Assembly (NCBI RefSeq): GCF_054482525.1
Contig: NZ_CM137006.1
Reading direction: 5' to 3' (one strand)
DNA length: 64,000 nucleotides
Below, one piece after another: positions 40,841 to 42,379 of the stretch (position 1 is its first letter; every line of letters begins with the position of its first letter). Made by a program: the position numbers and the translations under genes. A model generated the notes under the pieces. The model saw only the letters and a list, made by a program, of their open reading frames with translations. It was not told the origin of the DNA and did not search any database.

Positions 40841-40964
40841 GCCGTGTGATAAGTTCAAGTTTGCTTCAGAAGATTCGAAATCTGTTGAACTATCATTGAA
40901 CTGTAGGCCGGATGAGGCGTTTTGAACTGCACCCCAAATGTTGGACATAATCTGACATCTGAAG

Positions 40965-41495
40965 GTGCAGTTTATGAAACATTCATTTGAAGTAAAACTT
41001 GCCGCTGTAAATCACTACCTGGCTGGTCATGCAGGCATCATTTCTACGGCAAAACTCTTTCAACTTTCTCACACCAGCCTCTCACACTGGATTAATCTTT
41101 TTCTTCTTCACGGTCCTCGGGCACTGGATTGCAGACACAAGCGTAGCTATTCTCCTGAAGATAAACTTTGCGTGGTTCTTTATGCTCTCGGGCATTCTGA
41201 GTCTCTACCCCGGGTAGCTGCCCGGTTTAACATTCCCAGCCACAACACGGTTAAAAACTGGATAAAAGGCTACCGCAAATCTGGTAATGAGGCCTTTATC
41301 AGGCGCAGGAAGGAGAAAAGCATGACCCGTTCTGATGATACCCATGAAAACGAGGCAAACATGACGCCGGAAGAGATGAAGAATGAGCTGCGTTATCTTC
41401 GCGCAGAAAATGCATATCTGAAAGCCATGCAGGAGCATCTCCTGGAAAAAAAGCGCCAGGAGCTGGAGAAAAAACGAAAGTCATCCGGAGCCTGA
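40965..41495 (+). CDS. IS3-family transposase OrfA (helix-turn-helix / leucine zipper)
   Basis: 176-aa ORF; A-AAA-AAG slippery heptamer at 41447..41453 near its 3' end. Confidence 0.8.
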   Translation: MQFMKHSFEVKLAAVNHYLAGHAGIISTAKLFQLSHTSLSHWINLFLLHGPRALDCRHKRSYSPEDKLCVVLYALGHSESLPRVAARFNIPSHNTVKNWIKGYRKSGNEAFIRRRKEKSMTRSDDTHENEANMTPEEMKNELRYLRAENAYLKAMQEHLLEKKRQELEKKRKSSGA

Positions 41496-42322
41496 GGTGC
41501 GGACACTGCCAGTCTGACCTGTTAAAGGCTGCAGGGCTGGCCAGAAGCACGCTGTACTACCAGCTGTCACTGCAGAAGGCTAAGGACAAGTATGCTGATG
41601 TGAAACAGCTCATAGCCTCCATCTTCCATGAACACCGGGGATGTTATGGGTACCGGCGGATCCATTGTGAGCTTCAGAAAAGAGGTCTTAAGTTCAGTGG
41701 CAAAACGGTGCGAAAACTGATGCAACAGCTCGGCCTGAAGTCTCCTGTGCGCCTGAAGAAATACCGGTCTTACCGGGGAAATATGGGACTCGCTGCAGAA
41801 AATATCCTTCAGCGGCAGTTCAAAGCGGAAGCTCCCTGTGAGAAATGGGTGACAGATATCACCGAATTCAGGGCTGGCGGACAAAAACTGTACCTGTCCC
41901 CGATACTTGATTTGTTTAACGGGGAAATCGTGGCGTGGGAAACGGCCTGCAGGCCTACAGAGGAGCTGGTGAAGCGGATGTTAAATAAGGGGCTGGAAAG
42001 CCTTGCTGAAGGGGAGAAACCGCTGCTCCACAGTGATCAAGGATGGCATTACCGGATAAAAAGTTATCAGTCCGCCCTGGCGGACAGAGGGTTAGTGCAG
42101 AGCATGTCGCGCAAGGGCAACTGCCTTGATAATGCGGTAATGGAGAACTTCTTTGGTCACCTGAAAGAAGAAATGTACTATCGCCGGGACTACAGAAATG
42201 TAGAAGAGCTGGAAAATGCCGTTAACGAATACATAACTTACTGGAATCAAAAAAGAATAAAACTCAGTCTTGGGGGACTCAGTCCGGTAGAATACCGGAC
42301 TGAGCATCAAAAAGCCGGTTAA
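41450..42322 (+). CDS. IS3-family transposase OrfB (DDE integrase domain), expressed as an OrfAB fusion by -1 frameshifting
   Basis: the -1 frame is open from the slippery site to 42322; ORF 41600..42322 matches the rve/integrase core domain. Confidence 0.75.
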   Translation, partial: KAPGAGEKTKVIRSLRCGHCQSDLLKAAGLARSTLYYQLSLQKAKDKYADVKQLIASIFHEHRGCYGYRRIHCELQKRGLKFSGKTVRKLMQQLGLKSPVRLKKYRSYRGNMGLAAENILQRQFKAEAPCEKWVTDITEFRAGGQKLYLSPILDLFNGEIVAWETACRPTEELVKRMLNKGLESLAEGEKPLLHSDQGWHYRIKSYQSALADRGLVQSMSRKGNCLDNAVMENFFGHLKEEMYYRRDYRNVEELENAVNEYITYWNQKRIKLSLGGLSPVEYRTEHQKAG

Positions 42323-42379
42323 CTGAAACTGTCCAGGTTTTGGGGTTCAGTTCAGTTTTCGCCGCATCCGGCAACGTAC

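Follow-up and report, generated by a model that had tools for sequence, protein, structure and literature searches.

What is the 1432-bp element that parts the two arms of a palindromic unit between lpxM and pykA, how recently did it arrive, and why did it settle in the loop of a palindrome? These questions are raised by positions 40923-42354 of the window, as we call the whole 64,000-nucleotide stretch of DNA analyzed here. We regard it as nearly certain that the locus holds a recent, intact and probably active copy of IS1397 whose target was the loop of the repetitive extragenic palindromic (REP) unit on the pykA side. IS1397 is a known element and its behavior has been published, which makes this an ordinary finding, at a site that is rarely occupied. 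The new facts are limited to the location (rare, not unique), the evidence for recency and the repeated hits on one loop. The features of the locus, from left to right, are:

39841..40812, + strand: lpxM (lipid A myristoyltransferase), the left neighbor, undisrupted; annotated as lpxM in PCN033 and other strains
40814..40840, - strand: terminator-like hairpin with an 11-pair stem and a T-run; a consensus match only, with a putative function
40903..40919, - strand: half of the REP unit, a GTAG tail plus the arm GCCGGATGAGGCG; canonical orientation on the - strand; PCN033 and K-12 have the two arms in one unbroken unit
40919..40922, no strand: left copy of the target-site duplication GTTT; the empty site has a single GTTT
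40923..42354, + strand: IS1397, a complete 1432-bp copy with 100% identity to RefSeq copies; the PCN033 site is without it
40923..40947, + strand: left terminal inverted repeat (IRL), TGAACTGCACCCCAAATGTTGGACA, starting 5'-TG
42330..42354, + strand: right terminal inverted repeat (IRR), ending CA-3'
42355..42358, no strand: right copy of the target-site duplication GTTT, 4 bp, directly outside IRR
42360..42372, - strand: other arm of the REP unit, reading CGCCGCATCCGGC on the + strand; 7 nt downstream of the pykA stop codon
42380..43822, - strand: pykA (pyruvate kinase 2), the right neighbor, convergent with lpxM, its coding sequence intact

A reading made earlier from the letters of the window (the sequence-only reading) had described a 1432-bp element bounded by near-matching inverted repeats, with GTTT duplicated on both sides at 40919..40922 and 42355..42358. 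Both descriptions are accurate, and the empty site in E. coli PCN033 has one GTTT where the window has two. The terminal repeats of 25 nt each are complementary at 21 of 25 positions, run TGAAC...GTTCA and form the longest inverted pair of the region; the 64-kb window contains the 25-mer of IRL a single time, whereas 100 shuffles give an expectation of 0.00. Imperfect repeats of the TG...CA type together with a 3-4 bp duplication, here the 4-bp GTTT, fit the ends of an IS3-family element. A length of 1432 bp with 25-nt terminal repeats is reportedly also what the original description of IS1397 gives, and the RefSeq copies examined agree with it: 17 of the 18 other copies measure 1432 bp, as does the window copy, and one pseudogene copy measures 1431. 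As a minor observation, the left flank at 40896-40914 (TTGAACTGTAGGCCGGATG) is 74% identical to TTGAACTGCACCCCAAATG (40922-40940, the start of the IS plus the preceding T). We considered this flank, TTGAACTGTAGG, as a possible relative of the IS end at 74% identity and treated the likeness as probable chance, given that other IS1397 sites are without it.

Removal of the element and one GTTT brings together two arms of 13 nt (40907-40919 and 42360-42372) that are complementary at 12 of 13 positions, and the palindromic unit (PU) is restored as GCCGGATGAGGCG-TTTT-CGCCGCATCCGGC, or GCCGGATGCGGCG-AAAA-CGCCTCATCCGGCCTAC on the - (pykA) strand. The joined flanks minus one GTTT read GCCGGATGAGGCGTTTTCGCCGCATCCGGC, identical in PCN033, and lie in the wider context ...GTAGGCCGGATGAGGCGTTTTCGCCGCATCCGGC... 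of the restored site. The PU pattern is a ~35-nt imperfect palindrome, GCC(G/T)GATGCG(G/A)CG...CG(C/T)CTTATC(C/A)GGCCTAC. The restored lpxM-pykA site fits this pattern and is close to the REP31 consensus (Tobes and Pareja, 2006, supplement); the window as a whole holds eight PU half-sites versus 0.45 expected. The unit is extragenic, lying between convergent genes and starting 7 nt past the pykA stop codon.

The same palindrome is found uninterrupted in related genomes. At the empty site of PCN033, 4000 nt of joined flanks align without a difference, and the K-12 MG1655 site reads GCCGGATGTGGCGTTTTCGCCGCATCCGGC, with the palindrome intact and nothing annotated in the pykA-lpxM interval. Joined flanks are uninterrupted in 4939 of 5426 complete E. 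coli genomes. The earlier proposals that the flanks join into a REP unit and that K-12 carries no IS between lpxM and pykA are therefore both borne out, the first by the complementary arms and by the exact joined sequence in PCN033, the second by the intergenic comparison. A REP unit missing from the empty site of relatives, which would have spoken against the proposal, is not what we see in PCN033, K-12 or the 4939 genomes.

The spacer also varies in a different way among E. coli genomes. In ~486 of them, lpxM is not adjacent to pykA. In the O111 strain RM9322, similarity to the window ends exactly at the pykA stop codon, the junction is without a palindromic unit, and genes for a GH13 glycoside hydrolase, an amidohydrolase, an alpha/beta hydrolase and a Nif3-like protein lie upstream of it. 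The position of this break indicates that the REP-bearing spacer is also the boundary of a variable region.

The comparison with PCN033 indicates how long ago IS1397 arrived. The window is colinear with this genome (NZ_CP006632.1, 2026893-2089456, reverse strand) over 62,564 bp, with 9 mismatches, and the sole gap is IS1397 plus its 4-bp duplication. Because PCN033 has an empty site, and because the 62.6 kb show nine substitutions and no other indel, we judge the insertion to be recent. PCN033 itself has six places matching IS1397, of which the copy between caiF and caiE is 100% identical to the window copy. These comparisons are most simply read as IS1397 having transposed recently within the genome of a strain closely related to PCN033.

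The two states differ by the IS and 4 bp only, which by itself gives no direction of change. IS1397 could thus have been ancestral to the window strain and PCN033, an old insertion that was precisely excised in PCN033, and in strain AST215 an IS1397 occupies exactly this position, likewise between duplicated GTTT, as such a history would allow. However, the AST215 copy shows 21 differences from that of the window, with 7 more in the flanks, which places the two in different lineages, and the site is intact in 4939 of the 5426 genomes and occupied in only four. The identity of the window copy to the caiF-caiE copy of PCN033 fits a resident donor. Precise excision restoring a perfect target is, moreover, rare for IS3-family elements. 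We consider an ancestral insertion lost from PCN033 to be highly improbable. Taken as a recent insertion, the locus offers a clean, datable example of IS1397 movement; it marks the element as recently active in this lineage, and it could serve as a strain-typing marker.

The colinear region runs from otsA through flhDC and the mot, che and flhBAE genes to yebT. It includes a second insertion sequence at ~52586-54244, between ptrB and yebE, which by colinearity with PCN033 is the IS200/IS605-type element ISEc46, with tnpA and tnpB (of an RNA-guided endonuclease family); tnpB is annotated as frameshifted in PCN033.

Occupation of the lpxM-pyk palindrome by IS1397 is rare, with only 4 of the 5426 complete E. 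coli genomes carrying it. In three of them (WP8-S18-ESBL-07, 10035776-3 and AST262), the insertion point is shifted 2 bp to the right, TTTC is duplicated, and the IS sequence departs from the window copy at 15 positions. The fourth is AST215. All five insertions, the window and these four, are in one orientation. The TTTC group certainly arose apart from the two insertions with GTTT. For AST215 the most parsimonious reading is a third event, because PCN033, whose flanks are identical to those of the window, has an empty site. IS1397 has thus hit the same 4-nt loop independently at least twice and most likely three times among the five insertions, and this repetition gives a modest hint that the lpxM-pykA loop is a hot spot.

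IS copies and REPs are both repeats able to confuse assemblers, and the junctions might in principle have been created by misassembly, with one repeat, the IS, wrongly set beside another, the REP. The junctions are exact, the 4-bp duplication is clean, the joined flanks reproduce without a single difference an empty site that is experimentally independent, and the same palindrome is occupied likewise in four complete genomes, all of which reduces this explanation to a negligible probability and leaves a genuine insertion.

The identity of the element rests on a megablast search of a database of 5426 complete RefSeq E. coli genomes. Many RefSeq copies match the window element at 100% identity over its 1432 bp, and their annotation reads "IS3-like element IS1397 family transposase"; identical copies are named IS1397 in hundreds of genomes. 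The name thus comes from the RefSeq/NCBI annotation of identical copies, and the comparison was made against those annotated copies. An IS1397 copy covering at least 80% of the element is found in 1707 of the 5426 genomes, and 7605 of 7612 IS1397 places are chromosomal. The sequence-only reading had called the element an IS1397-like member of the IS3 family. The family and the link to IS1397 were right, given the full nucleotide identity and an exact protein match, and the word "like" was too weak: on sequence, 40923-42354 is IS1397 itself, of the IS3 family. We place it in the IS150 branch because the nearest other named elements found are ISKpn8 and IS150. At only ~43% protein identity, these next relatives do not offer the better match to another IS3 member that would have overturned the assignment. 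The names used by NCBI do contain the word "family" and come from annotation, yet the alternative that this is some IS1397 look-alike from the IS3 family, such as ISKpn1 or a further IS150-branch element, is scarcely credible in view of the 100% nucleotide identity to IS1397-named copies, the exact match to IS1397-named proteins, the ~43% identity of the nearest relatives and the insertion into a REP loop, a published hallmark of IS1397.

A remnant of the element is more widespread. K-12, BL21 and ~1780 other complete genomes without an intact IS1397 carry a 65-bp right-end relic that corresponds to IS positions 1368-1432 with 95.4% identity. In K-12 MG1655 this relic lies between yhhI and yhhJ, where it directly abuts half a palindromic unit, TAAACGCCTTATCCGGCCTA, and its other side is cut off beside the ISEc1 transposase gene yhhI. 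The statement that K-12 has no IS1397 therefore holds only for intact copies.

The coding capacity of the window copy is intact, and its reading frames are arranged as follows:

40974..41495, + strand: orfA, 173 aa, with Pfam HTH_28 at residues 8-57 and 64-113
41387..42322, + strand: orfB frame, -1 relative to orfA and open from 41387
41447..41453, + strand: slippery heptamer A_AAA_AAG, in register with orfA; programmed -1 frameshift site
40974..42322, + strand: orfAB, a 449-aa transposase made by -1 frameshift, with D295, D355, E391 and K398

This layout, with orfA in frame 0, an overlapping orfB in frame -1 and A_AAA_AAG in register, fits the IS3 family, whose standard design uses a frameshift to couple a DNA-binding OrfA with a catalytic OrfB (PMC5009743). 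When fused at A_AAA_AAG, the 449-aa OrfAB is an exact match to NCBI IS1397 family transposase proteins, and PGAP labels identical IS1397 copies "programmed frameshift". On NF033516, the NCBIfam model for IS3 family transposases, OrfAB reaches 387.2 bits where the cut-off is 160 and aligns along the entire profile (1-369 of 369); the orfB part by itself scores 299.5 bits. Pfam finds HTH_28 twice, HTH_21 and rve (E = 7e-21) on OrfAB. The DDE triad is present as D295, D355 and E391, with spacings of 60 and 36, and K398 follows seven residues past the glutamate. The intact reading frames and inverted repeats, the identity to widespread copies and the recent insertion relative to PCN033 suggest that this copy is probably active.

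Signals around the frameshift site and the element ends were also examined. Folding of 41425-41560 for a frameshift-stimulating RNA structure gave z = -1.31, which is not significant. An AGGAG motif 11 nt upstream of the heptamer may act as a candidate dnaX-like stimulator. Rfam gave no match in 40500-42700 at E <= 1, and promoter and terminator matches in 40700-42500 were not above the counts in shuffles. A TTGAAC/CATAAT match spanning IRL and the terminator-like hairpin near lpxM are leads only, as the scan finds such matches at chance frequency.

A route of insertion can be proposed from these features and from the biology of the family. IS1397 encodes OrfA, a DNA-binding protein with two helix-turn-helix domains, and -1 ribosomal frameshifting at A_AAA_AAG also yields the OrfAB DDE transposase. 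Copying out as a circle and then pasting in is established for the IS3 family (IS911, IS2 and IS3). By analogy with these elements, the transposase most likely copies IS1397 out as a circle with abutted ends, and this circle would be pasted into a target whose strands are cut 3-4 bp apart, leaving the GTTT duplication behind. In the present case the target was the 4-nt loop of one REP unit, located in the 3' region of pykA where this gene converges with lpxM. That the transposase itself would read the palindrome is taken from the literature, as PMC1525189 reports it from Wilde et al. (2003).

Insertion into REP units was given in the earlier reading as a trait of IS1397, and both the literature (PMC1525189) and a survey of other E. 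coli genomes agree with it. In the survey IS1397 lay in the loop of a PU palindrome at 16 of 16 distinct sites examined:

caiF-caiE, cysE-trmL, hemN-yshB, ybhJ-ybhC, yghU-hybG, yihN-ompL, bacA-cca and hycI-ascB
ubiG-yfaL, ygcP-ygcQ, hemW-yggM, zinT-msrQ, rrf-IS110, ruvB-znuB, speB-loiP and lpxM-pyk (other strains)

The top megablast matches were largely one cysE-trmL site, and the later sampling used rows spread across the matches. Eight of the 16 sites came from a query with the IS only, for which the flanks had no influence on selection. Every examined IS1397 splits the arms of a GCC(G/T)GAT...ATC(C/A)GGC palindrome, and palindromes starting GCCGGATG and GCCTGATG are both used. Duplications of 3-4 bp are seen at 14 of the 16 sites and are decayed at two; the duplicated sequences include GTTT, TTTC, TGG, AAT, TTAC, TCAC, GTT, TTGA, GTAC, GCT, TGC, TGT and GCCA. 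With ~six such palindromes in 62.6 kb of the window, a random insertion would fall in a loop with a chance well under 0.1%. A fixed orientation of IS1397 relative to the palindrome was considered and rejected: the first nine sites agree but were ranked by flank similarity, and the eight IS-only sites show both orientations.

IS1397 was reportedly described by Bachellier et al. in 1997, Clement et al. in 1999 and Wilde et al. in 2001 and 2003. It is known as an IS3-family element that inserts specifically into REPs (PMC1525189; PMC3184786), and a published example in CFT073 is also in a REP loop (PMC1525189). The specificity for REPs is set by the transposase (PMC1525189, citing Wilde et al., 2003; PMC3184786). 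Our 16-site survey of modern complete genomes agrees with the experimental claim of the 1990s-2000s that IS1397 goes only into REP loops.

Another potential target lies close to the insertion. The ruvB-znuB spacer holds ~three palindromic units, of which the one at ~35727-35761 (GCCTGATGCGCCGCTATTCGCGTCTTATCAGGC) is empty in the window. Strain AVS0542 has an IS1397 in the same ruvB-znuB unit with a TGT duplication, making this a second target within 5 kb of 40923-42354.

The insertion may affect expression of pykA. It splits the REP hairpin in the 3' region of the gene, and the terminator-like hairpin, which lies ~65-70 nt past the palindrome in genomes with an empty site, is here 1436 nt further from pykA. 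Liang, Rudd and Deutscher are said to have found in 2015 that REPs within ~15 nt of the stop codon lower expression of the upstream gene. REPs have also been reported as mRNA stabilizers (PMC1525189). Since the split hairpin starts 7 nt past the pykA stop codon and its loss could alter the pykA mRNA, the insertion might be selected rather than neutral. We think it unlikely that the loop is a preferred hot spot where insertion is possibly selected through the 3' end, the stability or the translation termination of the pykA mRNA.

Among known systems, IS1397 is the same as the window element in its whole 1432-bp sequence, its exact transposase protein and its insertion into REP loops with 3-4 bp duplications, and differs in location only, the lpxM-pykA palindrome being empty in K-12 and PCN033. 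IS150 and ISKpn8 share the long OrfA of ~173 aa, the -1 frameshift and the rve DDE domain, and align with residues 2-444 of OrfAB, whereas their protein identity is ~43% and they are common on plasmids, in contrast to the almost entirely chromosomal IS1397. To our knowledge, neither IS150 nor ISKpn8 is REP-specific. An extra N-terminal helix-turn-helix was considered as the domain that reads the REP and was set aside, as IS150 and ISKpn8 align from residue 2; for the same reason, IS1397 is not alone in having a long OrfA with two helix-turn-helix domains.

Two other elements resemble IS1397 in their choice of target. ISKpn1, likened here by its description in the literature, is an IS3-family element that targets palindromic units with a specificity set by its transposase (PMC1525189); it differs in its host, Klebsiella pneumoniae, and in the type of PU. 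IS621 likewise uses E. coli REP sequences as a target (PMC1525189; PMC3184786), but it belongs to the unrelated IS110 family, has another recombinase and no DDE OrfAB, and inserts at a specific site 3' of the REP, outside the palindrome arms and not in the loop (PMC3184786). In strain MS1266, downstream of rrf, a loop-inserted IS1397 lies ~240 bp from a degraded IS110-family transposase gene. Because IS621, the other REP-targeting E. coli IS, is a member of the IS110 family, a single REP cluster at this MS1266 locus may have served as target for two unrelated elements that seek REPs.
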